64,000 bases of DNA from Nitrospiraceae bacterium (GTDB lineage: Bacteria > Nitrospirota > Nitrospiria > Nitrospirales > Nitrospiraceae). Under the pieces are notes generated by a model that did no database searches, had not been told where the DNA came from, and saw only the letters and a program-made list of their open reading frames with translations. How positions within the stretch are numbered: position 1 is the first letter of the stretch; each line of letters begins with the position of its first letter. The stretch spans positions 460,811 to 524,810 of the forward strand of contig JBFWWG010000002.1 of assembly GCA_050246315.1 (NCBI GenBank), written 5' to 3'. A program made the translations under genes and the position numbers. Shown in pieces: positions 16,937 through 32,990 of the stretch.

Positions 16937-16964
16937 CACTAGGTCTTCTTTTCTTCACAACACT

Positions 16965-17075: not shown

Positions 17076-17768
17076 TCACTCCAAACGAAACGTGATACCG
17101 CCGATCGCCGCGTGCATCATCAGATCACTGGACGTGCCCACATTGATGGTGCCGGGTAGCGGTCCGGTGATCGAGAACGGCGCATCAACCTGATAATAGG
17201 TAAAGCGGTATTCGGCAAAAAGACCGATGGTCTTGGTCAACATCAGCGTGGCGCCGGCATTGCCCTTGAAACCGACGCGGGTATCGCTCTGGGATTGATT
17301 CGGTGGATTGAAATTGCTGGTGTCTTTCATTTCTGAAACGAACAGGGCCGGCCCAAGTGCCAATGACGGCTGAATTCGTCCATGTGGAAACTTGTCGCTG
17401 ACCGCCAAGGGCACACGGAGCTTGACCACATCGAAGCCAATGCCGATGGTCCGGATGTCCATCTGGAAGAGTTGTCCAGTGAGCGCCCCGCTTGAAACTT
17501 GCTGGTCTTTGATGTCCGGCTCCATATAGAACACATCGAGGCCCACACCGAAAAAAGGCAATGAGGAGAACCAGTAGCCCGCTCTGGCCCCTCCGGTGAA
17601 TCGGGTATCGGTATCGAGACCATCAAACGTGCCGGCCGCATTGCCGATCTGGACGTCCATATTGATGTTGCCTGTTGTGGCGCCACCGTAGATGTCGAAG
17701 GCCCATTCAGCGGCGACGTGGCCCGGAATGGTGAGGGCCAGGCATATGACGAGCAGCGGGACGATCAT
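17076..17768 (-). CDS. Outer-membrane beta-barrel protein
   Basis: AGGAG RBS + MIVPLLV signal peptide; alternating beta strands, FAEYRF, C-terminal GITFRLE. Confidence 0.8.
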   Translation of the reverse strand: MIVPLLVICLALTIPGHVAAEWAFDIYGGATTGNINMDVQIGNAAGTFDGLDTDTRFTGGARAGYWFSSLPFFGVGLDVFYMEPDIKDQQVSSGALTGQLFQMDIRTIGIGFDVVKLRVPLAVSDKFPHGRIQPSLALGPALFVSEMKDTSNFNPPNQSQSDTRVGFKGNAGATLMLTKTIGLFAEYRFTYYQVDAPFSITGPLPGTINVGTSSDLMMHAAIGGITFRLE

Positions 17769-18144
17769 GGGCAATCTCCTTTGCGGATGGAACGTGAAGG
17801 TAATCAGGCATTCCCCCTGTTGATGATCGCGATTCGAGCATCTGGACGGCCGGCATGCATTCGAGCTGAACCGGCAGGAACGCATCGAGGTGACGCTATG
17901 CCTAACAGACTATCTTGTCAAGATGGCGGAGAGCGAGGGAGGGCTCTGTTGTCGTCTGAGTCACGGAGGACCGAACGGCCGGTAGTACGGTTCAAGTCCC
18001 TTCCGGCGAGACGTGACCGGTTCTCCATTGTCCACTCGACATTCTACCGGCTCTTACTCCATGAGATCGAATCCCTTGACATCCCCGCGGCCCGCACCTA
18101 AGCTTTGGGCAGATCGCATCGCGCAAAGGAGTCTGGACTTCGTC

Positions 18145-18432
18145 ATGATGAAGCGACGCGCCTGGATCATCCTGGCGGTGGTGTTGATCGGTTCCCTAGC
18201 CGGATGCGGGGGATGGCGAAGCAGCTATCTGAACGATCAGACGGGAAAGGCCGGCAAGGGAACTATCGAGCAGGATCTCGGGAGACCCACACACAAGATC
18301 CCGGAGTCACACGGCATGTCTCAGTGGATCTACCAGGATTGTCCGGTCTATCAAGCCTGCTATGTCTGGGTGCTGATATTTGATCGGAATGACATTCTTC
18401 AGAATTGGGAACGAGCGCCCGCACAATCATGA
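18145..18432 (+). CDS. Small lipoprotein (BamE/SmpA-like pattern)
   Basis: Lipobox LAGC; LGRP...WIY...LIFD. Confidence 0.65.
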   Translation: MMKRRAWIILAVVLIGSLAGCGGWRSSYLNDQTGKAGKGTIEQDLGRPTHKIPESHGMSQWIYQDCPVYQACYVWVLIFDRNDILQNWERAPAQS

Positions 18433-18788
18433 TTCGACCACACGTGGCAGATTCACCTCATGACCCGATTCGTTATTCCGTAATTGTGGCCGGGGCCCTC
18501 CTCTTGTTCGCGGTCGGCGGTTGCGGCCCTCAGTCGGTGACTCTCAACAGCGGGACGCGCTCGCCCATGATTCTTCAAGAAAGCGCCTACACGGAATCCG
18601 GTTGCCGCGAGCACCTCACTGACAAAGCCCACGAACTCGGCATGACCTTGCAGTCCGTCTCGGTCAAGGGCTGGTTCTTCGGCGACACGTTATTGTGGCC
18701 GCTCTACAAAGGATACGTGTGTTTCGGCACCGACCGGGATCTTCCGGCCCTGATCGTCGGCTCTCCGACCACCACTTACTACTACTGA
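18429..18788 (+). CDS. Putative lipoprotein
   Basis: Hydrophobic stretch + VGGC; ATGA overlap with upstream gene. Confidence 0.6.
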   Translation: MIRPHVADSPHDPIRYSVIVAGALLLFAVGGCGPQSVTLNSGTRSPMILQESAYTESGCREHLTDKAHELGMTLQSVSVKGWFFGDTLLWPLYKGYVCFGTDRDLPALIVGSPTTTYYY

Positions 18789-18884
18789 GTCGGGCCGGTA
18801 CCGGTTCGCCCGGCTGCTCGGCGTCGTTGACCTGCTATCCCCTTCTTGCCCATCTGTGGAGTTTCTGTGTGGCACTGGATCGAC

Positions 18885-19364
18885 ATGATGGTGGGGCATT
18901 GGCGGTTCCTTTGGTGTGCCGCTCTGCTCATCATCATTTGGGTCACCACCGTCCCCGGCAACGTATTCGTGGGTCACTCCCATTGGTTCATCGTCAAGTG
19001 GATTCCGCTTCAGGGTTTCAGATTGTCCTTCGAGTACCTGACCGATCTCGCAGGCAACATCCTCCTGTTCGTTCCGTTAGGGTACTCCCAACTACATCTG
19101 GAATCGCGCCTGGGACGGAGCGGCATCCCAGGAGCCGTGGTTCTCGGCGTGATCCTGTCCCTCTCTGTAGAGTTATTCCAGGTCTATTCGCACGGACGCG
19201 CGCCGTCGGTGACCGATGTCTTGTGCAATGGTGTCGGAGCCTGTATCGGCGCGTTGGCAGCCCGGTGGGAATCGCTTACTTCCATCCCACCACGTCAGAC
19301 CCATGCTCTCGGCGACAGTGATTCACGTACGGCTTGTAAACCTGACTGGGCCGGTGATGGCTGA
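18885..19364 (+). CDS. VanZ-family membrane protein
   Basis: GNILLFVPLG, SVELFQ, GRAPSVTDVLCNGVGA. Confidence 0.85.
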   Translation: MMVGHWRFLWCAALLIIIWVTTVPGNVFVGHSHWFIVKWIPLQGFRLSFEYLTDLAGNILLFVPLGYSQLHLESRLGRSGIPGAVVLGVILSLSVELFQVYSHGRAPSVTDVLCNGVGACIGALAARWESLTSIPPRQTHALGDSDSRTACKPDWAGDG

Positions 19365-19402
19365 ACATTGAAGGGAGCAAGCCGTGCGTGGCTCCGCCGG
19401 CC
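19181..19402 (+). repeat. Left 222-bp direct repeat of island (copy at 29734-29955)
   Basis: Ungapped alignment to 29734-29955, ~27 mismatches by manual count. Confidence 0.95.
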
Positions 19403-19559
19403 ATCGGTCCATAACTGGAGATCTTTGAACGTGACCCTCACAACCTGAGAGGCACATGTTACACACTTCCCTTACATTCTAAGCCGCGATGACATGCGAA
19501 TCGCACTCTCCAGTCAGAAGGAGATCGGATCCAAGGGAGGGAGACAAACATCCGACGGC

Positions 19560-21005
19560 TTAGTTATCTTGGAGCGGAACTAACAACAGGCCGGAACCTC
19601 CCGGCACAGTCAGAGACAAGCACCCTCGCCTACAGGGATAGGGCCTGTTACTGAACGGATCGACGTAGGCGACCGCACTTTGCCCAAGCACCTTGGTTCC
19701 GAGATTGATGGTCACCGACGCGGGTTGATCCTGGTTATTGAAGAGAAGGACTGTATGGTGCTTCACAGTCTGTCTCAGAAAAACACACAGGTTCTGACGG
19801 GTATCGATCAATATCTCCTGCCAGTCACCCTGGCGTAAGGGCATACATGTTTTTCTGACGGCCACCATTCGCTTCGTGAATTCCATCAGGTCATGGTTCC
19901 ACTTCTCTGGATCCCATTCCATGGCCCGCCGATTGTCCGGATCCCGTCCTCCCGTGAGACCAACTTCGTCGCCGTAGTAGATAATCGGAATCCCCGGATA
20001 GACGAATTGAAACAGCAGCGCGAGCTTCAGACGTTCCCAGTCACCTCGTGCAACCGTGGCGATCCGTTCAGTGTCATGAGAACCCAAAGGATTAGCCATG
20101 ACGATGGTATGATCCCACGGATGGTGATGAACGAGCTTACGAAGCCGTGCCGAGAACGCTCGGACGTCGATCGCACGAGCGATAAAAAAGTCCAGCACGA
20201 TCTCACGAAGGAGATAATTCGTCGCGCCATCGAATTGACCATTTCCAACCCATGGAGCGGCATCGCCCCACACTTCTGCCAACAGATATGCCTCAGGGTT
20301 TTTCTTCCTGACCGCTCTGCATAACTCCTTCCAAAAGGCATGGCCTCGAACCTCACCAACCGCATCCACGCGCCACCCATCTATCCCTTGCCCCATCCAA
20401 TAGTTGGCGACGTCTATGAAGTATCTGCGCGTCTCCGGATTCTGCAGGTTAAGAATCGGCATTACCGGCCGGCCCTGCCATCCTCTATAGTTCGCCGGCC
20501 CTCGACAGAACGGTCTGATGGGAAACCGATCGATATGAAACCATTTCCGATATACCGATCGCGGTCCGTTTTCCAGGACGTCGTAGAAGGGATAGAAGCC
20601 GCGGCCACAGTGATTAAAGACACCGTCGAGGAGCACACGGATTTCACTCGCATGAGCTTTGGCGATAAGTGTCTGGAAGTCCTCCAGTTTTCCCAACCGC
20701 GGATCGATGGTGTAGTAATCAAACGTGTTGTACCGATGATTAGAGGATGAAAGAAAGATCGGTGTCAGATAGATGACGTTCACGCCAAGATCGACCAAGT
20801 AATCCAAACGATCGATAATGCCCTGGAGTGTCCCTCCCATGAAGCCATGCCGCGTGGGTCGCACCGCCCACCGCGCACGTACCGCGGGTTCCCGCAGGTT
20901 GGTTCCCTTAGCGAACCGGTCTGGGAAGATGTGGTAGATCACCGCATCGCGCGCCCATACCGGCGCAGGGCTGAGATCAGCGCCTGTCGACGTTAGTCCG
21001 CGCAT
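19560..21005 (-). CDS. GH13 glycoside hydrolase (neopullulanase/maltodextrin glucosidase-like)
   Basis: YHIFPDRF, IYLTPIF, DGVFNH, GIDGWRVDA, AEVW, SHDTER, IYYGDE. Confidence 0.92.
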   Translation of the reverse strand: MRGLTSTGADLSPAPVWARDAVIYHIFPDRFAKGTNLREPAVRARWAVRPTRHGFMGGTLQGIIDRLDYLVDLGVNVIYLTPIFLSSSNHRYNTFDYYTIDPRLGKLEDFQTLIAKAHASEIRVLLDGVFNHCGRGFYPFYDVLENGPRSVYRKWFHIDRFPIRPFCRGPANYRGWQGRPVMPILNLQNPETRRYFIDVANYWMGQGIDGWRVDAVGEVRGHAFWKELCRAVRKKNPEAYLLAEVWGDAAPWVGNGQFDGATNYLLREIVLDFFIARAIDVRAFSARLRKLVHHHPWDHTIVMANPLGSHDTERIATVARGDWERLKLALLFQFVYPGIPIIYYGDEVGLTGGRDPDNRRAMEWDPEKWNHDLMEFTKRMVAVRKTCMPLRQGDWQEILIDTRQNLCVFLRQTVKHHTVLLFNNQDQPASVTINLGTKVLGQSAVAYVDPFSNRPYPCRRGCLSLTVPGGSGLLLVPLQDN

Positions 21006-21136
21006 GGTACAGCGAATAGAGAAGAGAGCAGGGCGACCGGACGGCTCAGGGGGCTCGCACCGGAAGCGTGGGGCCCGAACCGCCCTTGAAGTCCAATCTC
21101 GGCGGACACCAGACTGACGATGCCAACAGAATGGAA

Positions 21137-21667
21137 TTAACAGCAGGTCCCAACGCTAGGCGTGCAACATCCGCAGTCGGATCCCATGCCAGCACAGCAA
21201 TCGTGATATGAACAGCACCCTCCGGCACAACAACTTGTCATCTTCGATGAAGAACATGCAGGACAGCCCGGGCACGCACATGCCCCAAAAGATGGTCCCG
21301 CGGCAATCCCTTGCAGCAAACGAGTGCCGGTTAGAAGTCCGGAATTCAACAACTCGACTCCCAACTTCACGGTCGTGGTCAACCGGTCGAATAATGACCC
21401 CCCCGTCTCGGATGGTCCTGGGCTCCAACTAGACGTGGCGAACGGCACCGCTTGACCAGGAATGGATGCCCCGGCGGAATGAGAAAACCCGAACGGCCAC
21501 GGAGCTCTTCCCTCAGGGGGAAATGACCCGAAAGTCGGTCCGGTGGCATGGGCGAACGGAGGCGTCCCGCGTGTCTGTTCGACACGCTTCTTATACTCCT
21601 GAAATTCAGCCTTCGCTTTTTTCTCTTTCTCCTGAGACAAATCTTTTGCAGCCTGACGGGTGGCCAT
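21137..21667 (-). CDS. Hypothetical protein with amphipathic helix and extremely Cys-rich C-terminus
   Basis: AGGAGA RBS + MATRQ; tail CACPGCPAC...SCCAGGCCSYHDCC...CGCC...GTCC. Confidence 0.8.
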   Translation of the reverse strand: MATRQAAKDLSQEKEKKAKAEFQEYKKRVEQTRGTPPFAHATGPTFGSFPPEGRAPWPFGFSHSAGASIPGQAVPFATSSWSPGPSETGGSLFDRLTTTVKLGVELLNSGLLTGTRLLQGIAAGPSFGACACPGCPACSSSKMTSCCAGGCCSYHDCCAGMGSDCGCCTPSVGTCC

Positions 21668-21696
21668 AGGGTTCTCCTGGGCTCTGTGGTCAATGA

Positions 21697-22329
21697 TCAG
21701 CAACTAAACACTTCACACCATCGAATCCGCGCGGTCATGTTGAGAACCAGCACGGTCACATGCGCGCCAGGCTTGGTGGTGATAATGCCTTCTTTGATCT
21801 GGTACCCATCCTGAGGACCGGCCTGCTTGACCCAGGCGAGTATCGTGTTTTCACTATCCCGTACCAACACAAACACCAGCGCGGGGACATTGGGGGACGG
21901 AATGGTCGGCGTATATTCAATCGAAAGATGCACACAGCAGCCACCCCCGATGAAGGCGTTGCCCATCCCTGCCTTTCCAATCTCAAGAGCTTGATTCCCC
22001 GCCTTCAGGTCGCCGCCTGCTCCCTTTTCCTCCACCTCTTCCATCCCCATCCGGCTGATTATGGGCGCCGCGACCTTCAGATGCTGGAGCATCTCCCCGG
22101 CCTTATCGGTCTTCTGATTGAGCGCGGTGTCGGCTTGCACCAATAACTCCTTGGACTCTTTGCGACACTCACGATGCCAACAACAACACTTGCCGGCGGG
22201 ATGACAGCAGTTCTTACAAAACCCGGATGCGCCAGAATGAGGGAAGGAAAGTGAGCCAAAGGGACCATACGCAATCCCGGGGTAGGACAATGCCGAAGAA
22301 CCGGAATAGAAGGGTCGTCCATGCGTCAT
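21697..22329 (-). CDS. Cys-rich beta-domain protein, paralogue of 22360-22827
   Basis: CKNCCHPAGKCCCW; IGGGCCVHLSIEY ... ARIRWCEVFSC. Confidence 0.8.
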   Translation of the reverse strand: MTHGRPFYSGSSALSYPGIAYGPFGSLSFPHSGASGFCKNCCHPAGKCCCWHRECRKESKELLVQADTALNQKTDKAGEMLQHLKVAAPIISRMGMEEVEEKGAGGDLKAGNQALEIGKAGMGNAFIGGGCCVHLSIEYTPTIPSPNVPALVFVLVRDSENTILAWVKQAGPQDGYQIKEGIITTKPGAHVTVLVLNMTARIRWCEVFSC

Positions 22330-22359
22330 CTCGTCAACCTTTCCTTTCTTGACTCGGTC

Positions 22360-22827
22360 CTAACAACAGACCCGTTCACACCATCGTAACCGAGCCATTA
22401 CGTCTGTGGCTTCTACGGTCACTTTCGAACCCGGAGCCGCTGCACTGAAATCAGTCTTGACATGATAGCCGCCGGCAATCGGCGTCTCCTGCCAGGTCAC
22501 GGTATTACCCGCAAGCGTCACACTGACTTGAATAGAGGCAGATGTAGCACCTTCCTTCGGGAGGTACTCCAACGTCAGATGGACTGACCCATACCCACCG
22601 ATCAAGGCCTCCTTTGTCGTGACCGTGTTATCGACTACGACTTCCTGAGGCACGAGCATCGGGTAGGTCATGCCGCTCCAGATCCCCGCCTCGGAGGTCG
22701 GGATCAGGACATACGGTACCAGGATGGCGTACATCGCGGGACTCCCTCCACGGCACCCCGGGTATTGAGATGACAAACACGGATGGCAGAGTGCAGGATG
22801 CCACATGGCATAGGGATGATACATCAT
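22360..22827 (-). CDS. Cys-containing beta-domain protein, paralogue of 21697-22329
   Basis: IGGYGSVHLTLEY ... ARLRWCERVCC; ATGA-coupled. Confidence 0.8.
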   Translation of the reverse strand: MMYHPYAMWHPALCHPCLSSQYPGCRGGSPAMYAILVPYVLIPTSEAGIWSGMTYPMLVPQEVVVDNTVTTKEALIGGYGSVHLTLEYLPKEGATSASIQVSVTLAGNTVTWQETPIAGGYHVKTDFSAAAPGSKVTVEATDVMARLRWCERVCC

Positions 22828-23021
22828 GTGTCTCCTTGGTTAGATGGCGACGATTCCTTAGTCAGCTCCTTAGTGATTTTCAGCGCATCCTCGACGATCT
22901 GGAAGCCGCCATTCACAAACGAGGTAATCAGATCGGCAAACTGTTTGGGAATTTGATTGTCGAGGATCTGTGTAGACGTTTGGTTGATCAGTTTCGTGAC
23001 TTGTCCAAGTACTGTGGCCAT
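22824..23021 (-). CDS. 65-aa amphipathic-helix protein
   Basis: AAGGA RBS; heptad-like hydrophobic spacing; coupled to next gene. Confidence 0.7.
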   Translation of the reverse strand: MATVLGQVTKLINQTSTQILDNQIPKQFADLITSFVNGGFQIVEDALKITKELTKESSPSNQGDT

Positions 23022-23063
23022 ACATGCATCCTTTCCTATATTGATGCGGACACGCTCACGGGC

Positions 23064-24527
23064 TCAATTCCGCGAGAACGTCTCCGCATGCTGGGAGGCG
23101 CGACCCGAGGTACACCCACCCAGATGACCGTCGAGAAGCTGGACACCCTTGGTCAGGACTTCGAGGCCCCAATTGAAACTTTGCAGAGGCTCCAAGGCCA
23201 TACGTCCTGAGGCCTTTGCCATACTATTGAACGCCGAGACCGTGAGATCGAGCGGACCCATCATGCCACGCTCCTCAAGCTGTAGGATCGCCCCCCAGGC
23301 CGTTGGATCTCGTGGAAGCGCATGAAACAAGGCTTTGGGCACCAGGCAGGCGCTCTGGGAAATCACTCCGCTGAACACGCCACTGCAAAATTCTTGAAAC
23401 TGCCGATCTCGCATGGTGAGCCGCGCGATATTCTTGAGTACGAACAAACAAAATTCTTTCAGATTTGGATTCTTGGCAATCGAGAGAAACAATTCGGCGG
23501 TGCGCCAATCCAACTCGAATTGCTTTTCCCATTGCTCCTGGTACCATCGGAGCGTCTCGACGGAACAATCCCCGATTGAGACCGCGCGGCGCGCCGCCTC
23601 GGAGGCCCAATAGGCGCTTTCCATCGCTTTGTGAATTCCTCCCCCGTTCAGAGGATCGGCCTGATTCGCCGCATCGCCGATAAGCATGATTCGATCGGCC
23701 ACGATCCGATTCGGCTTATAAAACGCCACAGCCCCGCCGGAGACGCCGCCGCACTGAGAGGCCTCCCCTAACAAGTCGGCCAAGTCGTCTTTGAGGAAGG
23801 CTTGAAACGTCTCCTTGAGGTTTTGAATCACAGGAAAGGTCTTGTCAAACGCATACCCCAGCCCGATATTGGCGAAGCCTTCGTCATCGACGAATACCCA
23901 TCCGTAACCCGGGAAGAAGCGCTCGTCGAAATAGACCTTGATCTGTGATCCCTGATATTTCACATTGCGGTAATACGTGCGCAAGGAAAGTGCGGTCGCC
24001 CCGTCCCTGAGCACATTGCCGATCGAGCGGGACACGACCGAGCTCACTCCATCGGCACCAATGACCATCCTGCCTCTGAAGTCGACCTGCTTGTTGCCGC
24101 TGTCCACGGTAACAACGACTGAGTCGGACTGATGCACAATTCCGCGGACGGGACAGTTTGGCTCAAAGCGGGCTCCTGAGGCCATCGCATTGTTCACTAG
24201 AATATGATCGAAACGCCGCCGATCGAGGAGAATACAGAAATCGGGGTACTTGGTATTCGGAGGAAAACCGCCGGTCAGGACCAGCTCTCGGTTGATATAG
24301 AGATCGCAGCGCTTGATGCAGGATTTCGTATGGTCGAGGACTTCATCGACACAGCCCAGCAGGTCGAGCCAATAGATCGTCTGCGGGGTAAGACCGTCGC
24401 CGCAGACTTTGTCCCTTGGAAAGTCGGCGCGATCGAGCAGAAGAGTCGAAAGCCCCTTCCGCGCCGCGAACGCAGCGGCGCTGCTGCCGCCTGGACCCGC
24501 TCCAACCACGATGACATCGTACATCAT
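23064..24527 (-). CDS. Geranylgeranyl-reductase-family FAD oxidoreductase with C-terminal extension
   Basis: VVGAGPGGS, FPRDKVCGDG, RRRFD, IGADG, GYGWVF, LIGDAA..DPLNGGGI. Confidence 0.9.
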   Translation of the reverse strand: MMYDVIVVGAGPGGSSAAAFAARKGLSTLLLDRADFPRDKVCGDGLTPQTIYWLDLLGCVDEVLDHTKSCIKRCDLYINRELVLTGGFPPNTKYPDFCILLDRRRFDHILVNNAMASGARFEPNCPVRGIVHQSDSVVVTVDSGNKQVDFRGRMVIGADGVSSVVSRSIGNVLRDGATALSLRTYYRNVKYQGSQIKVYFDERFFPGYGWVFVDDEGFANIGLGYAFDKTFPVIQNLKETFQAFLKDDLADLLGEASQCGGVSGGAVAFYKPNRIVADRIMLIGDAANQADPLNGGGIHKAMESAYWASEAARRAVSIGDCSVETLRWYQEQWEKQFELDWRTAELFLSIAKNPNLKEFCLFVLKNIARLTMRDRQFQEFCSGVFSGVISQSACLVPKALFHALPRDPTAWGAILQLEERGMMGPLDLTVSAFNSMAKASGRMALEPLQSFNWGLEVLTKGVQLLDGHLGGCTSGRASQHAETFSRN

Positions 24528-24585
24528 AGCGGACGACCATCCGCGAACTGTGCTGTTTGGCCTTCGTTACCCGGCATCCTTGCCG

Positions 24586-25326
24586 TTACAAGCCCGGGGG
24601 CACCACAAGAAGTTTCACGGGAATTTCGAATGCCTGGTCTGAGACAACGATCACTTTCCCATGATACACATCAGAAGGAATACCCTGAGGCACCTCACCT
24701 CTTAACACAAATTTCTCGAAATCCATGGGTGCGATAGTCTTCGCGTTGGGTTTCACGATAAACCCTGTACAGGAAAACTTGGTTCCACTCACCTGACCGA
24801 CAAAACCATCAAGTTCCAACCTGACTTGCCGTGCCGCGCTGGGCGAATCGTTATTGATCGAAAACGACACCTGCGTACGTTGCCCCGGTGTCACAGGTAA
24901 TCGATTCGCGATGCAATAGCTCTCTTCAGCCGCTCCCGCCGGATCTTGGGATGATCGTCCAGCCGCCGTTGGTTCAGGTCCATCCCCGTGGTAGCCCGGT
25001 TGAGGTTGAGCGCTCGGCTGAGGACGATCACTGGCAGATGCCAGAATCGATTCTTGGACCATCGAGCCAAACCGATTAATCAGCGTCAGGCCCAGGCTCA
25101 GTCCCGCTTCGGCAAGATCTAATCCTTTCGCCAACGTCGCGCCGAGTTGGTCAGCCCTATTTAGGAGCGGGGTCCTCGGCGGCTCCTGCGAGGCGTGAGG
25201 TTGGCGTTTCTTGCTGGTTGCCCGCGGTCGCCTACCCGCCGCCTGTCCGCCTTTTCGGTAACCAGCCGGCTTGGCTTCTGTTTTCGCCGTCTTTTCCATC
25301 GATCTTTCCGCGTTGCTATCCGTCAT
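24586..25326 (-). CDS. Hypothetical protein: amphipathic helix + C-terminal Ig-like beta-sandwich
   Basis: ATGA overlap with upstream gene; DQLGATLAKGLDLAEAG; PG....VSFSINN...YHGKVIV. Confidence 0.75.
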   Translation of the reverse strand: MTDSNAERSMEKTAKTEAKPAGYRKGGQAAGRRPRATSKKRQPHASQEPPRTPLLNRADQLGATLAKGLDLAEAGLSLGLTLINRFGSMVQESILASASDRPQPSAQPQPGYHGDGPEPTAAGRSSQDPAGAAEESYCIANRLPVTPGQRTQVSFSINNDSPSAARQVRLELDGFVGQVSGTKFSCTGFIVKPNAKTIAPMDFEKFVLRGEVPQGIPSDVYHGKVIVVSDQAFEIPVKLLVVPPGL

Positions 25327-25589
25327 CGACAACATCCGCACCAAGAGCAAGACGGCTTACAGGTAACGGTGCAATGGTGATAAATGGCAGGACCGCAACC
25401 ATGGCACGGGCCATGAGCGCCTCCGGAATCCCAATGCCCGCGTCCTGGTATAACGCTTCCGATTATGCGTCCGACCAACCATACCCCTGTATGTACCGCG
25501 CTCAATGCCAATCCCATCGTCTGACCTAATGCGTCGACAAGTCCCTGTCCATGACACCCAAGGTCGTGAGCTGAATGTCGATGCCTCAT
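25323..25589 (-). CDS. 88-aa His/Cys-rich protein with amphipathic helix
   Basis: GLVDALGQTMGLAL; tail PCHGC...HHCTVTCKPSCSWCGCCR; 3 nt after previous stop. Confidence 0.7.
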   Translation of the reverse strand: MRHRHSAHDLGCHGQGLVDALGQTMGLALSAVHTGVWLVGRIIGSVIPGRGHWDSGGAHGPCHGCGPAIYHHCTVTCKPSCSWCGCCR

Positions 25590-25592
25590 GGA

Positions 25593-26363
25593 TCACTCTC
25601 CCCCGCTGACGGAACTGAACCCGGTCTCCACGGCCGTAACCGATGAGGCCATCGAGAACCTATTCGCAGGGTCGCCGACGTATAACCCTCCATGGTACCG
25701 CGCGGCTCCGCCCGGCATTGGACCGGTTGCGGTCCTCCCGGCGGTCGCATGGCCGGCAGCATGCGCCATCCCTGTCCCACTCCGGTGATGCGTACTTTGG
25801 CCAATCGGCTCATGTGGATGAGGCACGCATGGCATCACAACCTTTGAAGACATGGTCGAGACCTTGCTCGGAATTGCCGGATTTCCGGCCGTGGCTACCT
25901 CCGGAAAGCTGCGGTGCAGAGACCGGGACTGCTCGCGACGGGCGCGGTCTCTTGGCGTCAGAACGGTGTGCCCGTCGATGTTGATGCGAAACAGCTCGAT
26001 ACCGAGCAGTTTGCCTCGCAGCGTATAGCTTGAAGGAAGACAAAACTCCTGATGCAATCCTACGGACACCGGAGGTAACCGGCGCACATTCAGGTCGACC
26101 CCGGGCAGTTGGCGCAGGGAGAGATTGACTGTCGGTAAATTCGTGACGTTGAACTTCTCCACCCGGATCGGGTCCAGATTTCGAACCTCATTGACGCGCA
26201 GCGATTCCACTGAGATTGGGTCGATGTGATTAAGCTCCTTGATGTGAACGGCCGCCGGAGCAATATGACGGACCTCGCTGATGACCAAGGGATCGATGTT
26301 GCTCAGCTCGCTGATCCTCAGCTTCTCGATGTTTTTCGCTTCTTTGATTTTTATGTCGCCCAT
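25593..26363 (-). CDS. Hypothetical protein with N-terminal ~10-11-aa repeats
   Basis: IKEAKNIEKL/ISELSNIDPL/ISEVRHIAPA/IKELNHIDPI/VNEVRNLDPI then LPxVxL repeats; AAGGA RBS. Confidence 0.8.
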   Translation of the reverse strand: MGDIKIKEAKNIEKLRISELSNIDPLVISEVRHIAPAAVHIKELNHIDPISVESLRVNEVRNLDPIRVEKFNVTNLPTVNLSLRQLPGVDLNVRRLPPVSVGLHQEFCLPSSYTLRGKLLGIELFRINIDGHTVLTPRDRARREQSRSLHRSFPEVATAGNPAIPSKVSTMSSKVVMPCVPHPHEPIGQSTHHRSGTGMAHAAGHATAGRTATGPMPGGAARYHGGLYVGDPANRFSMASSVTAVETGFSSVSGGE

Positions 26364-26389
26364 GGCTTCATCCTTCCGTCAGCCGCTCC

Positions 26390-27103
26390 TCAGACCAGAC
26401 CGGGCCAATCATAGTTCATCTGAATCACCTTGGCCTCATCCTGAACTGTCGGATGGCTTTGCAATCGCACCGTGACCGTCCTGATAGTGAGGCTCCCGCT
26501 CCCAGTGACTTGGTAGAGAAACCACGGATCCGCCCCCGCACCGGGCTGCACCGCATGATCCACCAGCCATTCAACCGTCTGTGAGGAGCTGTCACGGATG
26601 AAGGCCCTGAACATCTGCATCGTGTTACTGGCATCGATATATGAATTGTCGTGCCCTTGCGGATAGTACAGGTCGATCCGTTTCGGAAAAATCTCGACGG
26701 ATGGCTGAGATACCGGCTCGGGACCACGACCGATAAGGGTGACGAATGCAAAGGCTTTTCGAAGGGGGTTTTCAACCGGGGTGGCCACAACCACGTCTGT
26801 CAACCCGTGAGGAAGGCTGCCTTTGGGAGGAGCCACGTAGAGCCCGGCCGGATCGATGGAGCCTGCACCGGAATTGCCGGCAAGGTCTTGGACGGTCCAA
26901 GTGACCTTGGACGTCGATCCGTTGTACACAACCGCGTCGAACCGCACTTGTGTATTGACCGGATCAACGAATCGTTCATCCTGGAAATAGAGTTCGGCAT
27001 TCTCCGGCCAGACCTCCACCTCTATTTGATGCTCGCAGAGCATCTCGTGCCACACGTGAACAGCAGAAGGAATGACGTGTCTGGACAGGGAATACGGGGT
27101 CAT
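26390..27103 (-). CDS. Hypothetical protein with Ig-like domains
   Basis: VTWTV......GSIDPAGLYVAP motif; second V.W.V unit; no signal peptide. Confidence 0.75.
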   Translation of the reverse strand: MTPYSLSRHVIPSAVHVWHEMLCEHQIEVEVWPENAELYFQDERFVDPVNTQVRFDAVVYNGSTSKVTWTVQDLAGNSGAGSIDPAGLYVAPPKGSLPHGLTDVVVATPVENPLRKAFAFVTLIGRGPEPVSQPSVEIFPKRIDLYYPQGHDNSYIDASNTMQMFRAFIRDSSSQTVEWLVDHAVQPGAGADPWFLYQVTGSGSLTIRTVTVRLQSHPTVQDEAKVIQMNYDWPGLV

Positions 27104-27130
27104 CGGCCTACCCGATCGAGGGTGGAGTTA

Positions 27131-27559
27131 TTACATCGCCTCCACACCTTCTTCGAAATCGCCGTCAGGCAACTCAATGGCACAATTCGCTATCTTGCCA
27201 AACAATTTGCCCTTGACGTTCAGCTTGGATTTACATCCCACTTTCCCTTTCACTTCAGCCTGCACACCCTTGGTGCCCAAGATCCCCTCAAGCCGCACGC
27301 TGGCGCCTTCAATCGTCACCGAAAACGGGGCCACTTTCACGCCAAAACTACCGAGCGACGCGATCATCTGCATACCACCGCGTCGTTTGAGAAAGGGGAT
27401 CGCCAGGTTAATCGGAATCTCGTCGACCTTGACGGCGATGCAACTGACCGTCGCGCTAAGCGCCCCCGTCGCTGTGGATTCAAAAGCGATCGGCGCGGTC
27501 ATCGCCTGCAGACTGAACTCGGGCTCGCTTTCCATCAGGATCTGAGAATTGAGCTTCAC
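27131..27559 (-). CDS. Hypothetical beta-rich protein
   Basis: AGGAGG RBS; GTGA overlap with upstream gene. Confidence 0.75.
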   Translation of the reverse strand: MKLNSQILMESEPEFSLQAMTAPIAFESTATGALSATVSCIAVKVDEIPINLAIPFLKRRGGMQMIASLGSFGVKVAPFSVTIEGASVRLEGILGTKGVQAEVKGKVGCKSKLNVKGKLFGKIANCAIELPDGDFEEGVEAM

Positions 27560-27765
27560 TGTTGCTCCTCCTGCTGATTGGCCGCCGCTGCGTGGATGCC
27601 ATCCGGATAAATACGTCCCACAAGATCACTGCACATCGCATCGACACGCTGGTTGAGCTTTTCAAACCCCTTCAACGCCTGTGCGATCTCCTCGCAGTTG
27701 GCCCCTTCAATTTCGAACGAGACAAAAGGGCCAAGCTTAATCCTCAGTATCATGTTGGCGGGCAT
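27556..27765 (-). CDS. 69-aa hypothetical protein
   Basis: Operon position, coupled to next gene. Confidence 0.7.
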   Translation of the reverse strand: MPANMILRIKLGPFVSFEIEGANCEEIAQALKGFEKLNQRVDAMCSDLVGRIYPDGIHAAAANQQEEQQ

Positions 27766-27819
27766 TCTACCACCCTTCTCGAAGAAAACATATGTCAGAC
27801 CCCGGCATCGTCGCCCTCG

Positions 27820-28491
27820 TCACCGCCTTGATTTCGACTTTCGAGCGGATCCGGATCGTGATACCTGTTCTGCACTATTAGGTTTCATTTCACGCCGCAT
27901 ACCGTTCATAGGCTTTCCGTTCCCATTCATGCGCGAACTCTCATGAAGATTCTTGTCGCACTCTTGCAGGACATCTACCATCTCGCCAAGCGCACTGAGC
28001 AGGACCTCCAGCGCTTCTCGCTGCTGCTTATCCAACGTGGCGTACAGCTCTTCGAGTTTCTTCTCCAGATCACGGCCTTCTTGCGAATTTCGGAATTCTC
28101 TTCCTCGCTCGCGAAGAATGTTTCCGAATTGGTCCAGAATGGAAATCACACCATAGAGGAGATCCACCGACAGCTTCCTTTCCAAGTTTTCATCAGCGAA
28201 GGGCTCCGGTTGACAAATGGGGCAGGCAAGCGGGCGTTCGTCGGGCGTCAGCGACCACCGGGCAAACAAGGCCGACCGGGAAGACTCCGGAATTGCTGGG
28301 CAATGACTCCGATGCAGCCGTCCGCAGACAGGGTCGAACTGCATGGGTGCTTGTGCGGCTTCATCGCGATAATCAATCCGAAAGAGCGGATACCTTCCGC
28401 TTAGCTTTCCGTCCGCATGCCAGTCCTGGAGCGAAATCGCGAATGCATCAGCCCATAACATTCCGGTAGCCGCCTTCTGATCGTTATTCAT
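27820..28491 (-). CDS. Hypothetical protein with LHxxxC...CxxC metal-binding motif and helical C-terminus
   Basis: RLHRSHCPAI...ACPICQP; overlaps upstream stop. Confidence 0.75.
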   Translation of the reverse strand: MNNDQKAATGMLWADAFAISLQDWHADGKLSGRYPLFRIDYRDEAAQAPMQFDPVCGRLHRSHCPAIPESSRSALFARWSLTPDERPLACPICQPEPFADENLERKLSVDLLYGVISILDQFGNILRERGREFRNSQEGRDLEKKLEELYATLDKQQREALEVLLSALGEMVDVLQECDKNLHESSRMNGNGKPMNGMRREMKPNSAEQVSRSGSARKSKSRR

Positions 28492-29401
28492 AGACGGCCC
28501 AAGGTAACTCCTGTTGAGGTTTCTGAAGCCGATGCTTTCTGAGCCTCGTGAGATAGTACTTCGTCATGAATCCGATCATGACGTCCCGCCCATTTCCCTC
28601 CGGCAGGCCATCGCTCAGGCGTTTCATGTAGACATAAAACAGACGGCGTAATGTTCGTTCAGGATCAGCGACTTGATTGATGTAAGTGAGCCGATTGTAA
28701 AACAGGTCCGAATAGTAATCGCCGTGATCGTCGATGTACATGATGAGGGAGCCGGCCAGAAAGATCAGACTTGCGTACCGCAGCGGGAGTTCGGGAACCA
28801 AGAAACCAGTCAACACCAAGATCGCATGGCCACTCCGGTTCCTCGCATTCTCCCGCAGCACATGAAGTTGTTGATGTCGGGGCAGATCATCAAATGAGGA
28901 CCGGTCAAGACGAACCTGAACATCCCGCTTCTGCGCGTTGAGCAAGAGAAGAATGGCTTGCCGGAGGAACCGATCGAGGACATCCCGTTCCGCAAACAAT
29001 CGCGAGATGATCACATAAAACAGCTTTTCGCGTGGGGTTCGAATCTCAAACCATCCCGTCGTCAACAGGAGTTCGAACCGTTCCAGGTAGTCCCTCGCCG
29101 CGTCATTCCCAAAATCGTCGAGAAAACTATCGGCTAAAAAACAGCAGCCGCCAAACAAGCTGCCGATCCTCTGCCGTCGCGCGTCGTAGGGATACCCACA
29201 AATTTCCGAACAGGCGTGCCCGACAACGGTCATTTTCGCGCTTAGTTCCATCATTTTTCGGCATTCGTCGCGACGATCTCGGTAGAGCTCGGGATAGTAC
29301 GCGCGGACGAGCGGCTCCAGACACGCACCGGCCGCCTTACGATAGTCTTCGAACAGGCGGTCGATCTGAAAACTTGCTTCTGAGCGCTGAGGCTGTCGCA
29401 T
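28484..29401 (-). CDS. Putative class I isoprenoid-synthase-fold protein (terpene synthase/prenyltransferase-like)
   Basis: All-helical; Asp-rich motifs LADSFLDD and YIDDHGDYYSD, with RNRSG between; GGAG RBS at ATG 29401. Confidence 0.65.
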   Translation of the reverse strand: MRQPQRSEASFQIDRLFEDYRKAAGACLEPLVRAYYPELYRDRRDECRKMMELSAKMTVVGHACSEICGYPYDARRQRIGSLFGGCCFLADSFLDDFGNDAARDYLERFELLLTTGWFEIRTPREKLFYVIISRLFAERDVLDRFLRQAILLLLNAQKRDVQVRLDRSSFDDLPRHQQLHVLRENARNRSGHAILVLTGFLVPELPLRYASLIFLAGSLIMYIDDHGDYYSDLFYNRLTYINQVADPERTLRRLFYVYMKRLSDGLPEGNGRDVMIGFMTKYYLTRLRKHRLQKPQQELPWAVYE

Positions 29402-29733
29402 CGACGCTCCGCCAGGAGGAGCGTTCGCATTATAGGTCTTTTGCACCGAAAACAAAATCCGCGGCGGAAGTCCTCCGGCATTCTATGAAACCTCGACGCC
29501 GACTCACATTGGCGCTGTCGCAAAGAAATTGCACTGGAGGCAGATTACGTTGGCCTCTATTTCCTTGCCCCGCCGAGTGGTCCGCGAATGAGGCGATGCG
29601 ACGGCTCTTACGATAAAGAGTCTTATTCCCCTTCGCCCAATAACCATGATCTGCCAGAAATTCGATCGGTTCCTGCAAGACAATCACGGACGCCCTGTTG
29701 GGTCGGCGATGATCCCCTCAGGGAAATCATGTC

Positions 29734-29955
29734 GGTCTAGGCGCACGGACGCACGCCGTCGGTGACCGACGTCCTGTGCAATGGTGTCGGAGCCTGGATC
29801 GGCGCGTTGGCGGTTCGCTGGGAATCGCTTACTTCCATCCCACCACGTCATACCCCCGTTCGCGGAGACAGCGATTCACGTACTGCTTGTAAACCTGACT
29901 GGGCTGGCGACGGCTGAACAGCGACCGAAGCAAGCCGTGCGTGGCCCCGCCGGCC
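29734..29955 (+). repeat. Right 222-bp direct repeat of island
   Basis: Matches 19181-19402; holds an orphan vanZ 3' fragment and the intact glycine-zipper gene 3' end. Confidence 0.95.
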
Positions 29956-30308
29956 GCGCCCGCCGCCGCGCCGGTCATGGCTCCTCGTCCCGGATTGCCG
30001 CGGATCGCGCCGGCCACTGCTCCGCCCGCCGCTCCGGACGCCGATCCCATGGCTGCTCCTGTGGCAGTTCTGGTGGCGGTCTCCCCGGTCTTGCCCGAAT
30101 CCGGCTCGGCACCGGCCGCCTCGGCAGCCTCCCCGCAGAACTCGATATCCTGTTCGGCAACGGTCTCACCAACATCCTGGAAATGCGCATTCGGATAGAG
30201 GATCGGCTTCGAACGAGAACAGCCGGCCAACAGGATGACCGCCACAGCCAACAGCGATGTCGCCGCGCCCGCGCGCCCGCGCCGGTCGATCAGCAGTCGG
30301 ATCATCAT
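29829..30308 (-). CDS. Glycine-zipper lipoprotein
   Basis: LAGC lipobox; GAAxGAAxG repeats; YVNRCLRERGY. Confidence 0.85.
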   Translation of the reverse strand: MMIRLLIDRRGRAGAATSLLAVAVILLAGCSRSKPILYPNAHFQDVGETVAEQDIEFCGEAAEAAGAEPDSGKTGETATRTATGAAMGSASGAAGGAVAGAIRGNPGRGAMTGAAAGAAGGATHGLLRSLFSRRQPSQVYKQYVNRCLRERGYDVVGWK

Positions 30309-31159
30309 GAGGGGATCTGGAGTTCCCGGCGGCGAAGCGCCTTCATCATCTGCGGGTCGCTCAGCCCTACTTCGCTGAGCGCGTCCATGATGTGCAGGTT
30401 TCTGGTCTTGGCTAATTCCTTGGCCTTTGCATATTGCATGTGGTTGAACCGTGCCACCGCCGGCTGATTGTTGACGATCTGGCAGGCCAACACCTCGCCG
30501 TCCACTTCAAGCACACCTCCCTGTTCGATCAAGGTACGGGCCTGTGCCACGCTAATGCCGTGGAGCTGCGCAAACTCCGCAAGCCCCCCGGTTTCGACAA
30601 GCTGACCGTCGGGCATAATGCAGAGGCGCTTGAAGTGCGGCGACCAATCCTTCCGAAAATCGATGTATTTGATGTCTCCCCCGCGGGAGACCGACCGATC
30701 CAGCTTGCGATAGTCCAGCCCCAGGTTCTTCTGATCCAGTTTGGTCAGAAGCTCGGGAGGTAATGTCCGGTAGAAGACCCGGGCCGCCGCCTCCGACAAC
30801 GAGATTGCCGCGGACCGGGCCAGTTGCTCCGCCTCACACATCTGCATGAGGTCTAACAGCCAGGTCTGCTTCGGCTTCTCTCCCGTCGGATCGATCCGGC
30901 AGACAAACACCCCCCTCGTGATCAAGGAGCCATCCTGCGGATAATGATAGAGTCCTCCCTCTCGAAGGACCTTCGTCATCTCGTCCAGCGGCACCTCGTA
31001 ACTTTCCGCCAGCACCTTGGCATGTCCTGTAAGATCCTCCTCTTCCGTCATGGCACAGACGGTGACATTGCCCGGCGCATCGAATTCCGTATAGTCTTCG
31101 ATGATGTTGTAAAGAGCCGGGGCCTTGGTTTGAACGGCTTTCTTCTTGATCTTGAACAT
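30305..31159 (-). CDS. Hypothetical protein with internally duplicated domain
   Basis: GGAGG RBS; two homologous halves. Confidence 0.75.
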   Translation of the reverse strand: MFKIKKKAVQTKAPALYNIIEDYTEFDAPGNVTVCAMTEEEDLTGHAKVLAESYEVPLDEMTKVLREGGLYHYPQDGSLITRGVFVCRIDPTGEKPKQTWLLDLMQMCEAEQLARSAAISLSEAAARVFYRTLPPELLTKLDQKNLGLDYRKLDRSVSRGGDIKYIDFRKDWSPHFKRLCIMPDGQLVETGGLAEFAQLHGISVAQARTLIEQGGVLEVDGEVLACQIVNNQPAVARFNHMQYAKAKELAKTRNLHIMDALSEVGLSDPQMMKALRRRELQIPS

Positions 31160-31247
31160 GTTCCTCCGAACACAGACTGAGGTTCAGGTTGAGGCCAAGG
31201 AAGACAGGTGCAGCGCCACATACCCGTATCTGTTCTCACCCTCAGCC

Positions 31248-32990
31248 TTAACCTTTGGGTTGTCTCTCGCCATACGGCGGCAGGGTCGTCAACCGCTGAT
31301 CTTCCACCGCGCCGCCGACGGTGAAGTGGTACAAGGATTGAAACGTCCGGTCCTTCAGCCCGAACACCTCGTGGACCGGATCGTCGAAGAAACACCCGAT
31401 CCCGGTCGCCCGGACGCCGGCGGCTTCCGCTTCGAGATAGAGCACCTGACCGATCACACCACATTCCCAAAATAACCGCGGGTAGACCCAGGGGCCGATC
31501 GTCTGCAATGGATCCGCGAACTCAGCCAACATGCCCAACGAAAAGGCGCTGGCGCCGGCGATCTCTTGATGGCAACTGACCTGCGCCGCAAGCCGGCGAC
31601 CATCTCCTTCGGCCAAGCAGAACAGCGGAAGGGACGGTGGACAACCGGAGGGTTGGGCCCACAGGAAATCCCGGTTCATCTGTTGTCGAAGGACCGAGAG
31701 TTTAGCCTCATCGCGAACCAGGCAATAGAGTCCCGGCGCGAGCCCATCCACTAAATGAACGAACAGACCCAGGTGCACCCTCGGTTCCCAGGTCAACACA
31801 TCCCATGGAATCGCAGGGAGACCTGAGGCGGCCTCGGTCGTCACCGGCATCACCCGCTCCAGCATGTGAAAGAAGGTCTGATCGGTGATCGAGGTCTTCC
31901 CGTCGAAGGCCACGGCGCTGCGACGCTGATGGATCAGTTGATGGGCGGTCGCTGATCGGTTAGAAACAGGTGGTGGGAAGGAAGCTGTCGGACCGCCCTC
32001 ACGCGGCCGGCCCTGGGTCCGGGGTTTGCCCGTCGCCTCGGAGACCTCGTCGATGATATCCCACCGCACCGGCTCGTCGGGACTCAGTCGATTGCCGTGA
32101 CCGTGCCACACCGCTCGGTCCATAGCCAAGATCGACTCCTCATCCAAGCCGAGAGGAATCGACCGGTGCTCCTCGGCTTGAGCGATGGTATCCACCGCCG
32201 GCCAAACGACGGCCAACACATCCGCATATTCCGCCTCGACCCCTTCAAAATCTTTCCGGCGGGCGACCCCACATACGGCCGCGACTTCCTCGGTCGCAAG
32301 ATCATCAAGCAGCCGCATCCGCCATCCGAGCGATGCGGCGGAGATCCTCGCGCTTCCGATGGCATGGCCCGTATCGTGATGGCAATAGCGAAAGGCGCGT
32401 TCTCCGTATTTCCACGCCTCCCGCCAATAGACCGATGTCACGCCAACCAGAAAGGAATGCACGGGAAACGGGGCGAGCAGCCTCCTGAACACGTCCTCCG
32501 GTACGTCCGCCCGTAACTCCAACCCATGCTCCTTGGGCGCATAGTGATAGAGCGCCGGATGGTCCGCCAATCCGGCCAACGGTCCGATCAGCACATAGCC
32601 TTCGGTCGGATGCAGGTTGCCGCTTGACGGATTGCTCCGAAGCGCCCACCGGACCTCCCCCGCCTGTTTCCAGGCCGTGATCGAAAGCGCGTACTCAAGA
32701 AAGCGCGAGAGCGAGGCAGATGTCAGCGGTTCCGGCGTCACAGCCTGATGGCGATAGAGATCGTCGTAGCAAGGCGGCGGCTCTTGGGCCTCCAACAGTG
32801 GAAGCCGGAACAGGGGCGCCCCCTGGTACCGGCGAAAGGGGTCCGGTTGATTGGCCCAGTCGAGATAGCCCAATGATCGGGCATAGCGCATGAACTGATG
32901 CTTGGTCTCCTCGTGGTAGCGGATCACCTGCTCGCGAGGCGTCAACCCTTCGGATCGGCGCGGCAGCCGGTTTGCAGTGGTCTTCTCCAT
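31248..32990 (-). CDS. SagB/ThcOx-family tandem nitroreductase-domain protein
   Basis: YHEETKH, LDWANQP, LRSNPSSGNLHPTE, WKYGERAFRY, RRSA, GIGCFFDD. Confidence 0.88.
   Translation of the reverse strand: MEKTTANRLPRRSEGLTPREQVIRYHEETKHQFMRYARSLGYLDWANQPDPFRRYQGAPLFRLPLLEAQEPPPCYDDLYRHQAVTPEPLTSASLSRFLEYALSITAWKQAGEVRWALRSNPSSGNLHPTEGYVLIGPLAGLADHPALYHYAPKEHGLELRADVPEDVFRRLLAPFPVHSFLVGVTSVYWREAWKYGERAFRYCHHDTGHAIGSARISAASLGWRMRLLDDLATEEVAAVCGVARRKDFEGVEAEYADVLAVVWPAVDTIAQAEEHRSIPLGLDEESILAMDRAVWHGHGNRLSPDEPVRWDIIDEVSEATGKPRTQGRPREGGPTASFPPPVSNRSATAHQLIHQRRSAVAFDGKTSITDQTFFHMLERVMPVTTEAASGLPAIPWDVLTWEPRVHLGLFVHLVDGLAPGLYCLVRDEAKLSVLRQQMNRDFLWAQPSGCPPSLPLFCLAEGDGRRLAAQVSCHQEIAGASAFSLGMLAEFADPLQTIGPWVYPRLFWECGVIGQVLYLEAEAAGVRATGIGCFFDDPVHEVFGLKDRTFQSLYHFTVGGAVEDQRLTTLPPYGERQPKG

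Follow-up and report, generated by a model that had tools for sequence, protein, structure and literature searches.

Rab and CaaX prenylation in eukaryotes anchors proteins to membranes by C15 or C20 groups carried on -CC, -CXC or -XXC C-termini, through prenyltransferases that are alpha/beta heterodimers with a catalytic zinc and a fold other than that of the isoprenoid synthases; we know of no reduction of the prenyl group in eukaryotic protein prenylation. Flavoproteins of the geranylgeranyl reductase (GGR) family bind FAD through a GxGxxG motif and are further recognised by a Cys adjacent to the flavin and by a substrate motif, YxWxF. Family 2 encapsulin operons carry a terpene cyclase or polyprenyl transferase as cargo. 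ComQ, PalQ and StheQ are described as enzymes of the isoprenoid synthase fold whose substrate is a partner peptide, prenylated on a Trp that lies at its C-terminus or close to it (PMC10853753; bioRxiv 10.64898/2026.08.29.745113; PMC5331326), with a large leader domain that enhances C-terminal prenylation by ComQ and PalQ (PMC10853753) and, in the ComQ family, a degenerate ('pseudo') second Asp-rich motif and a single Mg site (bioRxiv 10.64898/2026.08.29.745113). Cysteine S-prenylation is presented as eukaryotic, and bacterial enzyme families as acting on peptide substrates, in passages of a review (PMC13290415). Here we compare with these systems a block of 14 genes on the minus strand, at positions 19560-29401, of a 64,000-nt stretch of DNA from a Nitrospiraceae bacterium (contig JBFWWG010000002.1), the whole of which we call the window.

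Thirteen of these genes are a conserved cassette, and the fourteenth, encoding a GH13 hydrolase, is an extra. In our assessment the cassette belongs to no known kind of system: no searched library, solved structure or paper describes it, and a literature search of open-access papers for its features returned nothing relevant. The reading that ties most of its features together is our best guess, and a tentative one, namely that the 13 conserved genes, as a self-contained cassette, may build an assembly of several proteins in the cytoplasm, with C-terminal tails that g01 prenylates and the GGR-family protein g09 saturates.

A thirteen-gene cassette conserved across phyla

The 14 genes run in one orientation and are numbered in transcription order (lengths in amino acids, aa):

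28484-29401, minus strand: g01, 305 aa, isoprenoid-synthase-fold protein with two Asp-rich motifs (by predicted structure and alignment)
27820-28491, minus strand: g02, 223 aa, N-terminal His/Cys3 domain followed by a helical region (alignment)
27556-27765, minus strand: g03, 69 aa, small, strongly conserved protein (tblastn)
27131-27559, minus strand: g04, 142 aa, orphan with a conserved 'iPFl' motif (alignment)
26390-27103, minus strand: g05, 237 aa, tandem Ig-like (Big_2-like) domains (ESM Atlas)
25593-26363, minus strand: g06, 256 aa, seven Pro-terminated degenerate repeats, a conserved hairpin and a variable tail
25323-25589, minus strand: g07, 88 aa, helix module and Cys/His-rich tail, an optional member
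24586-25350, minus strand: g08, 254 aa (start uncertain), basic disordered N-terminus, helix module GLDLAEAGLSLG and C-terminal domain
23064-24527, minus strand: g09, 487 aa, GGR-family flavoprotein with a C-terminal extension of ~140 aa
22824-23021, minus strand: g10, 65 aa, small helical protein
22360-22827, minus strand: g11, 155 aa, variable Cys/His/Pro-rich N-terminus and jelly-roll domain
21697-22329, minus strand: g12, 210 aa, N-terminal Cys cluster, GGGCC and jelly-roll domain
21137-21703, minus strand: g13, 188 aa (start uncertain), helix module and metallothionein-like Cys tail
19560-21005, minus strand: g14, 481 aa, cyclomaltodextrinase-like GH13 alpha-glucan hydrolase (PF00128)

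An earlier, sequence-only reading had seen 14 co-oriented minus-strand genes with overlaps, and the open reading frame (ORF) listing bears this out: the reading frames of g01 and g02 share 8 nt, those of g03/g04 and of g10/g11 share 4 nt each, and two further overlaps, g12/g13 (7 nt) and g07/g08, depend on TTG starts being real. Among the 14 proteins only g09 and g14 have matches in Pfam and NCBIfam, and the eleven proteins other than g01, g09 and g14 have none in Pfam, NCBIfam, PHROGs or PADLOC; likewise, 100 orthologues from nine of the families gave no Pfam match above cut-off apart from those of the g09 and g14 families. No transmembrane segment was found in the block proteins (the top Kyte-Doolittle mean over 19 residues is 1.58) and no signal peptide, the latter as judged by eye only. 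Rfam families are absent from 14000-32000, and promoter-like sites (4 versus 4.7 expected) and terminator-like sites (12 versus 10.1 expected) occur at chance level.

Relatives of g01 number 389 at E <= 1e-3 in a collection of 5.8 billion clusters, with 57-72% identity in Nitrospira, Caulobacter, Rhizomicrobium and Paraburkholderia, and a scan of one genome per species yielded 53 loci. For gene content we used the 33 public loci with at least 9 kb of room (the long loci) and the ten readily detected core genes, g01-g06, g08, g09, g11 and g12. All ten are present in 31 of the 33 long loci, the exceptions being L040, which lacks the reductase, and L031, which has g01-g02 only; their order is the same in 30 of the 31. 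The only non-colinear case, L011 (uncultured Gammaproteobacteria, 214-10894), starts with g03 and g04, has a second g03 after g02 and places g01 last, after the GH13 gene. Other members were detected less often in the long loci (g13 in 22, g10 in 17, a GH13 homologue in 7 and g07 in 4) by tblastn, which undercounts small or low-complexity genes. The homologues therefore co-occur outside this genome, which the sequence-only reading had made the test of its proposal, and they do so in conserved order across phyla; the GH13 hydrolase, which that reading counted in the operon, is not a core member, given its presence in 7 of 33 loci.

In a quick maximum-likelihood tree, the g01 sequences fall under 12 phylum labels, two of them suspect. 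The 'Dehalococcoidia' g01 (L013) is identical to a Rhodospirillales g01 (L014) from the same study, so that the label is probably a binning error and the phylum count is slightly inflated, and a 'Bacillaceae' g01 row nests within the Alphaproteobacteria. The cassette is also present in the cultured strains Caulobacter sp. BK020 and Paraburkholderia panacisoli DCY113. All-against-all clustering of the locus ORFs revealed no further gene family common across phyla in the flanks, and Pfam searches of 122 flanking ORFs indicated unrelated neighbours, with no transporter or regulator among them. In its small structural genes, fixed order, patchy distribution over phyla and combination of isoprenoid enzymes with a possible shell, the cassette recalls gas-vesicle clusters and Family 2 encapsulin operons. 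Gvp, encapsulin and microcompartment families are nonetheless absent from the Pfam scans of the 14 proteins and the 100 orthologues, and neither the family libraries nor profile searches of the Protein Data Bank (PDB) placed the proteins in a characterised system, the other outcome that the sequence-only reading had named as fatal to it.

The limits of the block in the window are set by a direct repeat of 222 nt:

19181-19402, plus strand: left copy, the 3' end of a VanZ-like gene (18846-19364)
29734-29955, plus strand: right copy, 88% identical, a non-coding remnant

The insert between the copies (19403-29733) measures ~10.3 kb. The entire block, GH13 gene included, came as one piece, because three genomes of the same genus have an empty site in which 19402 is joined directly to 29734 with a single 222-nt copy. 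A search for g01 found it in a single one of 200 further genomes of the family and in none of 3 congeneric ones, and GC content is 0.55-0.58 in the block versus 0.60-0.62 on its right side. This arrangement points to a Campbell-type integration of a circle that carried a homologous VanZ 3' fragment; no recombinase lies within the insert. The clean insertion with its empty site had been passed over by the sequence-only reading, as had the exact C-terminal Cys motifs and the helix module homologous in three proteins (see below). Separately, one contig from an RNA library (run X15) joins 29818 back to 19266, a step of 10553, within the 222-nt repeat and over 32 shared letters; it could reflect a circle or tandem copy, or a k-mer assembly artefact, which is at least as likely because the joint falls in the repeat with those 32 letters, and we did not use it as evidence.

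We weighed the notion that the block is a viral remnant or module, such as a jelly-roll capsid-like particle, or an anti-phage system, as would suit a region rich in mobile-element genes. PHROGs and PADLOC, however, returned only a chance match to the FAD-binding N-terminus of g09 (PHROGs) and a GlgB model for the GH13 protein (PADLOC), g01 was not found in 50,697 phage and 72,556 plasmid records, and the block holds no ATPase, nuclease, polymerase or integrase. We regard a viral or defensive role as highly improbable.

Isoprenoid enzymes and the accessory GH13

The sequence-only reading counted three enzymes in the block. Two of them, g09 (TIGR02032) and g14 (PF00128), pass family models, and the third, g01, is an isoprenoid-synthase-fold protein as judged by predicted structure and motifs, with no sequence-family match. 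For exactly this protein the ESM Atlas has a model (pTM 0.87), which gave TM scores by query of 0.58 to an SQS_PSY cluster and 0.64 to a polyprenyl_synt cluster, a comparison of predicted with predicted structures that is informative at the level of the fold, and its nearest named feature cluster is DUF2600, the tetraprenyl-curcumene synthase family. Two motifs, FLADSFxDDF and IDDHGDxxSD, are invariant in an alignment of 13 sequences from many phyla, the invariant residues being D91/D95/D96 and D224/D225/D228/D232; in class I isoprenoid synthases the Asp-rich motifs are spaced about 130-140 residues apart, and a pattern of two DxxxD motifs is that of squalene and phytoene synthases. g01 itself has no Pfam or NCBIfam match and 12 orthologues likewise have no Pfam match. 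The assignment is by structure and motifs because the g01 profile has no similarity to the host genome's own two PF00348 and two PF00494 proteins (hhalign probability <1%).

In the comparison of g01 with ComQ, PalQ and StheQ, the predicted all-alpha synthase-fold protein has the first Asp-rich motif, and proteins with a conserved Trp or Cys in their last 8 residues, possible counterparts of the partner peptides, are encoded in the same cassette. Unlike them, it lacks PF00348 similarity and retains an intact second motif, its potential partners are folded proteins of 150-210 aa and not pheromone peptides, no ComP/ComA pair accompanies it, and the conserved terminal residue is Cys and not only Trp.

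The second gene, which overlaps g01 and would be translationally coupled to it, encodes invariant residues H60, C64, C90 and C93 (alignment), a probable zinc site to judge from the pattern of these residues; all Pfam matches of g02 are stray and below threshold. At L031 the g01-g02 pair stands alone at 1029-2616 and is followed by RNase III and housekeeping genes, which hints at a separable two-gene unit; no g05 homologue was found in the metagenome-assembled genome that holds L031, a genome whose completeness is not established. A complex prediction with g01, residues 1-135 of g02, the C-terminal domain of g12 (117-209 in alignment numbering) and Zn scored 0.02 for the partner against a mark of 0.32, and as a single job without controls it lends no support to binding and is no evidence against it.

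The reductase g09 matches TIGR02032 at 199.9 bits (cut-off 158.8, 7e-59; NCBIfam), and over 37 sequences (that of the window and 36 orthologues) the motifs VGAGPgG, KVCGDG, FPGYgWlF and GDAANqaDPlNGGGI reach at least 90% conservation. It thus resembles the archaeal DGGGPL reductase, BchP/ChlP and MenJ in passing the superfamily model and in keeping the FAD and substrate motifs. It differs from them in that it belongs to no characterised equivalog, all scores being far below the cut-offs (e.g. MenJ, 121.6 versus 700), in its conserved C-terminal extension, in its company of structural proteins and in the tandem duplicates of some loci. Two GGR-family genes lie in tandem in four cassettes (L014, L016, L018 and L032), and in L029 another GGR match (53% identity) lies past the GH13 gene, on its downstream side.

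The GH13 protein g14 matches PF00128 at 1.7e-66 (Pfam), and its top NCBIfam match is cyclomaltodextrinase at 359.6 bits, under the cut-off of 540. Although it lies within the inserted block here, GH13 is a cassette accessory, and the glucan-turnover arm of the sequence-only reading is accessory too because a minority of cassettes have the gene. Unrelated GH13 genes are repeatedly found as neighbours of the cassette (L028, L042 and L049).

The pair of enzymes could also work on free lipids. Their product would then be a free isoprenoid, saturated and perhaps a phytanyl-type lipid or a C30/C40 hydrocarbon joined head to head, and it would form a droplet coated by the helix-module proteins (g07, g08, g13 and g10) and the beta-sandwich proteins. 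Both g01 motifs fit the squalene/phytoene synthase pattern, SQS_PSY and DUF2600 are among its neighbours, three proteins have in common a Gly/Ala/Leu-rich, moderately amphipathic helix, transporters and membrane proteins are absent, and the host has a prenyl-diphosphate supply of its own (2 PF00348 and 2 PF00494 genes). Such an inclusion, however, leaves both the near-invariant Cys motifs at the C-termini and the N-terminal Cys clusters without a function, the helices are amphipathic to a moderate degree only, and L040 has no reductase. We consider this alternative rather unlikely.

Structural-type proteins and cysteine motifs

The remaining proteins have the look of building blocks. g03 has 47-79% identity in tblastn matches across the public loci, and g04 appears beta-rich by eye. 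The Ig-like domains and the repeat protein of the sequence-only reading are both there: g05 resembles tandem Big_2-like Ig domains in ESM Atlas features and structure (mean column identity of its alignment, 51%), and g06 contains seven degenerate repeats of 10-16 residues, each terminated by Pro, and has a strongly conserved core. AlphaFold2 did not fold g06 (pLDDT 49.6, one hairpin modelled) and that model was not used for fold searches; order only within a complex is one possible reason for the failure of g06 to fold alone.

Pairwise hhalign over 11 cassette families gave three relations only, g07/g13, g08/g13 and g11/g12. The first two trace a module of ~38 residues common to g07, g08 and g13 (g07(14-51) versus g13(101-142), 88.7%; g08(59-96) versus g13(98-135), 75.6%), Gly/Ala/Leu-rich and moderately amphipathic (muH 0.43-0.48), so that of the shared amphipathic helix proposed earlier the sharing holds and the amphipathicity is moderate only. 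The conserved C-terminal domain of g08 is beta-rich in appearance. The third relation (99.8%) makes g11 and g12 paralogues, in agreement with the two paralogous beta domains seen before. The C-terminal domain of g12 was modelled as a jelly-roll with block-mean pLDDT of at least 90 over most of it, and searches with Foldseek against the PDB and BFVD and with VIA-align against 48,161 chains returned only generic jelly-roll matches: carbohydrate-binding modules, C1q/TNF, nucleoplasmin, viral capsids and tail-fibre tips. Profiles of g01, g06 and g12 found no relative among PDB sequences, the sole row being a chance match (E 0.12).

Cysteine is concentrated at the ends of these proteins, and in four of them, the two jelly-roll paralogues and two of those with the helix module, near-invariant Cys motifs stand at the very C-terminus. 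Residue counts confirm the Cys/His-rich tails noted from the sequence, with 15 Cys in the last 50 residues of g13 and 8 Cys plus 5 His in those of g07, and the C-terminus of g13 is mostly CCxP[SG]VGxCC across orthologues. g12 ends here in ...ARVRWCEVFSC; the ending RWCE[VI]F[SI]C is found in 32 of the 33 g12 rows listed, 6 of which have 1-2 extra residues (C or GC) past the motif, the L046 protein ends in FSG, and L010, a row listed in addition, belongs to g11 as a cross-hit. The ending of g11 itself is ...ARLRWCExxCC, with a terminal CC in most rows. The Trp of RWCE is near-invariant in g11 and g12, 7 residues from the end, and neither gene is adjacent to g01. A profile search of 1.84 billion representative proteins placed 212 clusters in the g11/g12 family; a free C-terminus appears to be part of its definition, because no fused form is among the matches listed, none of which is longer than 254 aa, and the match reaches the C-terminus in most rows. 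At its other end, g12 keeps a CxxCxHPxxxCxCxxxxC cluster, and GGGCC lies just before the second sandwich strand, which puts its CC in the turn after the first strand, with more Cys in and after the last strand.

The placing of these residues brings to mind a polymer, in which the jelly-rolls g11 and g12 would be locked by disulfides or metal-thiolate clusters, terminal Cys extensions being linked to edge-strand Cys as in Bacillus Ena fibres or Cys-rich spore-coat lattices, with g13 and g07 as cement and the isoprenoid enzymes as auxiliaries. The distribution of Cys over the N-terminal extension, the second-strand boundary and the last strand of g12 favours it, as does the tail of g13, whose composition resembles what we take to be the Cys repeats of metallothioneins or keratin-associated proteins. 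The possible resemblance to Ena (DUF3992) and to spore-coat and exosporium lattices would extend to small jelly-rolls, Cys-bearing terminal extensions, edge-strand Cys and side-by-side paralogues, and passages of the Ena report have the jelly-rolls bonding an N-terminal connector CC to Cys in strands B and I (bioRxiv 10.1101/2020.08.21.260141). On the other hand, there is no sequence relation (neither g11, g12 nor 12 g11 orthologues match DUF3992 in Pfam, and no coat family was matched), hosts are mostly non-sporulating Gram-negative bacteria, and the cassette comprises isoprenoid enzymes and nine further proteins, the core status of the synthase-fold protein and of the GGR being left unexplained. 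All the proteins are predicted to be cytoplasmic, and the labels of several hosts (SEEP-SRB2, Syntrophobacterales) are those of anaerobes, both unfavourable to disulfides. We judge a cross-linked polymer likewise rather unlikely.

The same tails might handle metals, either storing or detoxifying Cu, Zn or Cd or seeding a metal-sulfide particle in a protein scaffold. The Cys and His counts of g13 and g07 and the conserved His/Cys3 site of g02 would suit this role, and the labels of the sequencing runs in which the stretch occurs are wastewater, sludge, bioreactor and aquatic metagenome. Yet the cassette has no linked transporter, chaperone or regulator for metals, the isoprenoid enzymes have no part in such a scheme, and the terminal motifs are sequence-specific and more than Cys-rich, which makes metal handling quite unlikely in our estimate.

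Conserved C-termini are equally a feature expected of a cluster akin to those for ribosomally synthesised and post-translationally modified peptides, with g07, g11, g12 and g13 as precursors of a prenylated, Cys-derived peptide and their large domains as leaders, for which ComQ and PalQ, where a large leader domain enhances prenylation, provide a precedent (PMC10853753). The supposed leaders are conserved folded domains, however, six more conserved structural proteins would be without a role, and neither the cassette nor its flanks encode a protease, an exporter, a cyclodehydratase, a radical-SAM enzyme or any other tailoring enzyme of such pathways; we hold this explanation to be very doubtful.

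The prenylation reading, our tentative favourite, gives these ends a use. g01 would ionise a prenyl diphosphate supplied by the host, perhaps together with g02 and its His/Cys3 site. It would then place the prenyl group on g11, g12, g13 and, in loci that have it, g07, either at the conserved Cys of the C-terminus or at the invariant Trp. The GGR would then saturate the attached chain, and the lipidated jelly-rolls, with the Ig-like g05, the repeat protein g06 and the helix-module proteins g08 and g13, may form a lattice or coat on a lipid surface; in some lineages the GH13 add-on would tie the module to alpha-glucan metabolism. Eukaryotic Rab and CaaX substrates are alike in their C-terminal Cys motifs and unlike in that no homologue of that system was found here.

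Several points weigh against it. We infer both the lipidation of the tails and the action of g01 on a protein. The second Asp-rich motif of g01 is fully conserved, unlike that of the ComQ family, so a diphosphate-condensing or cyclising enzyme fits equally well. The long and variable poly-Cys tails of g13 and g07 look closer, as sequences, to metal-binding or disulfide-forming ones than to single lipidation sites, the g11 orthologues of L042 and L046 have lost the terminal Cys pair, and the L040 cassette is missing its GGR. Pfam searches of the same 122 flanking ORFs turned up neither an isoprenylcysteine methyltransferase nor a CaaX-type protease near any cassette.

In favour of expression, metatranscriptome contigs from four RNA libraries, which belong to three studies, span 28 to 30 of 30 bins in each run and cross many junctions between genes (e.g. 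24243-27703 and 21101-23124), which establishes presence in RNA libraries, compatible with DNA carry-over, and implies neither a single transcript nor a level.

The sequence-only reading had concluded that the operon builds a structure, for instance a lipid-filled inclusion with an envelope or a cross-linked coat. This is supported in part: a self-contained, structure-building cytoplasmic module with a pair of isoprenoid enzymes is the most reasonable class of explanation, of which the inclusion, the envelope and the coat would be hypothetical forms, and glucan turnover, as said, is accessory.

Genomic surroundings and meaning of the cassette

The window holds further genes on either side of the block. 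Positions 1-16936 carry genes of mobile-element type, namely a class-II-like ribonucleotide reductase, an AAA ATPase, a primase-type CHC2 zinc ribbon, an SNF2-like helicase, a DUF6094 methyltransferase, the beta subunit (sliding clamp) of DNA polymerase III and a tyrosine integrase (15701-16936), and look like an integrated element with its own clamp. A second tyrosine integrase ORF (46842-48167) overlaps tRNA-Ser(CGA) (46926-47015) on the opposite strand, likely the border of another island. Just past the insert, a minus-strand gene (31248-32990) encodes 580 aa with two nitroreductase-family stretches, and beyond it lie genes for a HEAT-repeat protein (33645-34445) and a 481-aa orphan (34325-35770).

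What sets the cassette apart is the pattern as a whole: about eleven unannotated families in one fixed operon, in about a dozen phyla, with two isoprenoid enzymes, moved as a unit. Such a pattern usually marks a complete machine or organelle, as in gas vesicles, microcompartments and magnetosomes. In its boldest form, to which we assign a low probability, the prenylation reading would mean that bacteria have an endogenous S-prenylation (or prenylation of a C-terminal Trp or Cys) in which a synthase-fold transferase and a reductase attach a saturated, archaeal-like phytanyl-type anchor, and that jelly-roll and Cys-tail proteins build an as yet unseen lipid-associated organelle or lattice in the cytoplasm, the whole being a 10-kb plug-in that moves between phyla. 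Because the insert is ~10.3 kb long, has defined ends and is present in cultured strains, heterologous expression can address these possibilities directly. If the Cys tails are prenylated, the cassette would be the first endogenous bacterial protein-lipidation system of that type; if its product is instead an isoprenoid body with a coat, or a polymer of cross-linked jelly-rolls, the gain would be a new kind of bacterial inclusion or biomaterial.

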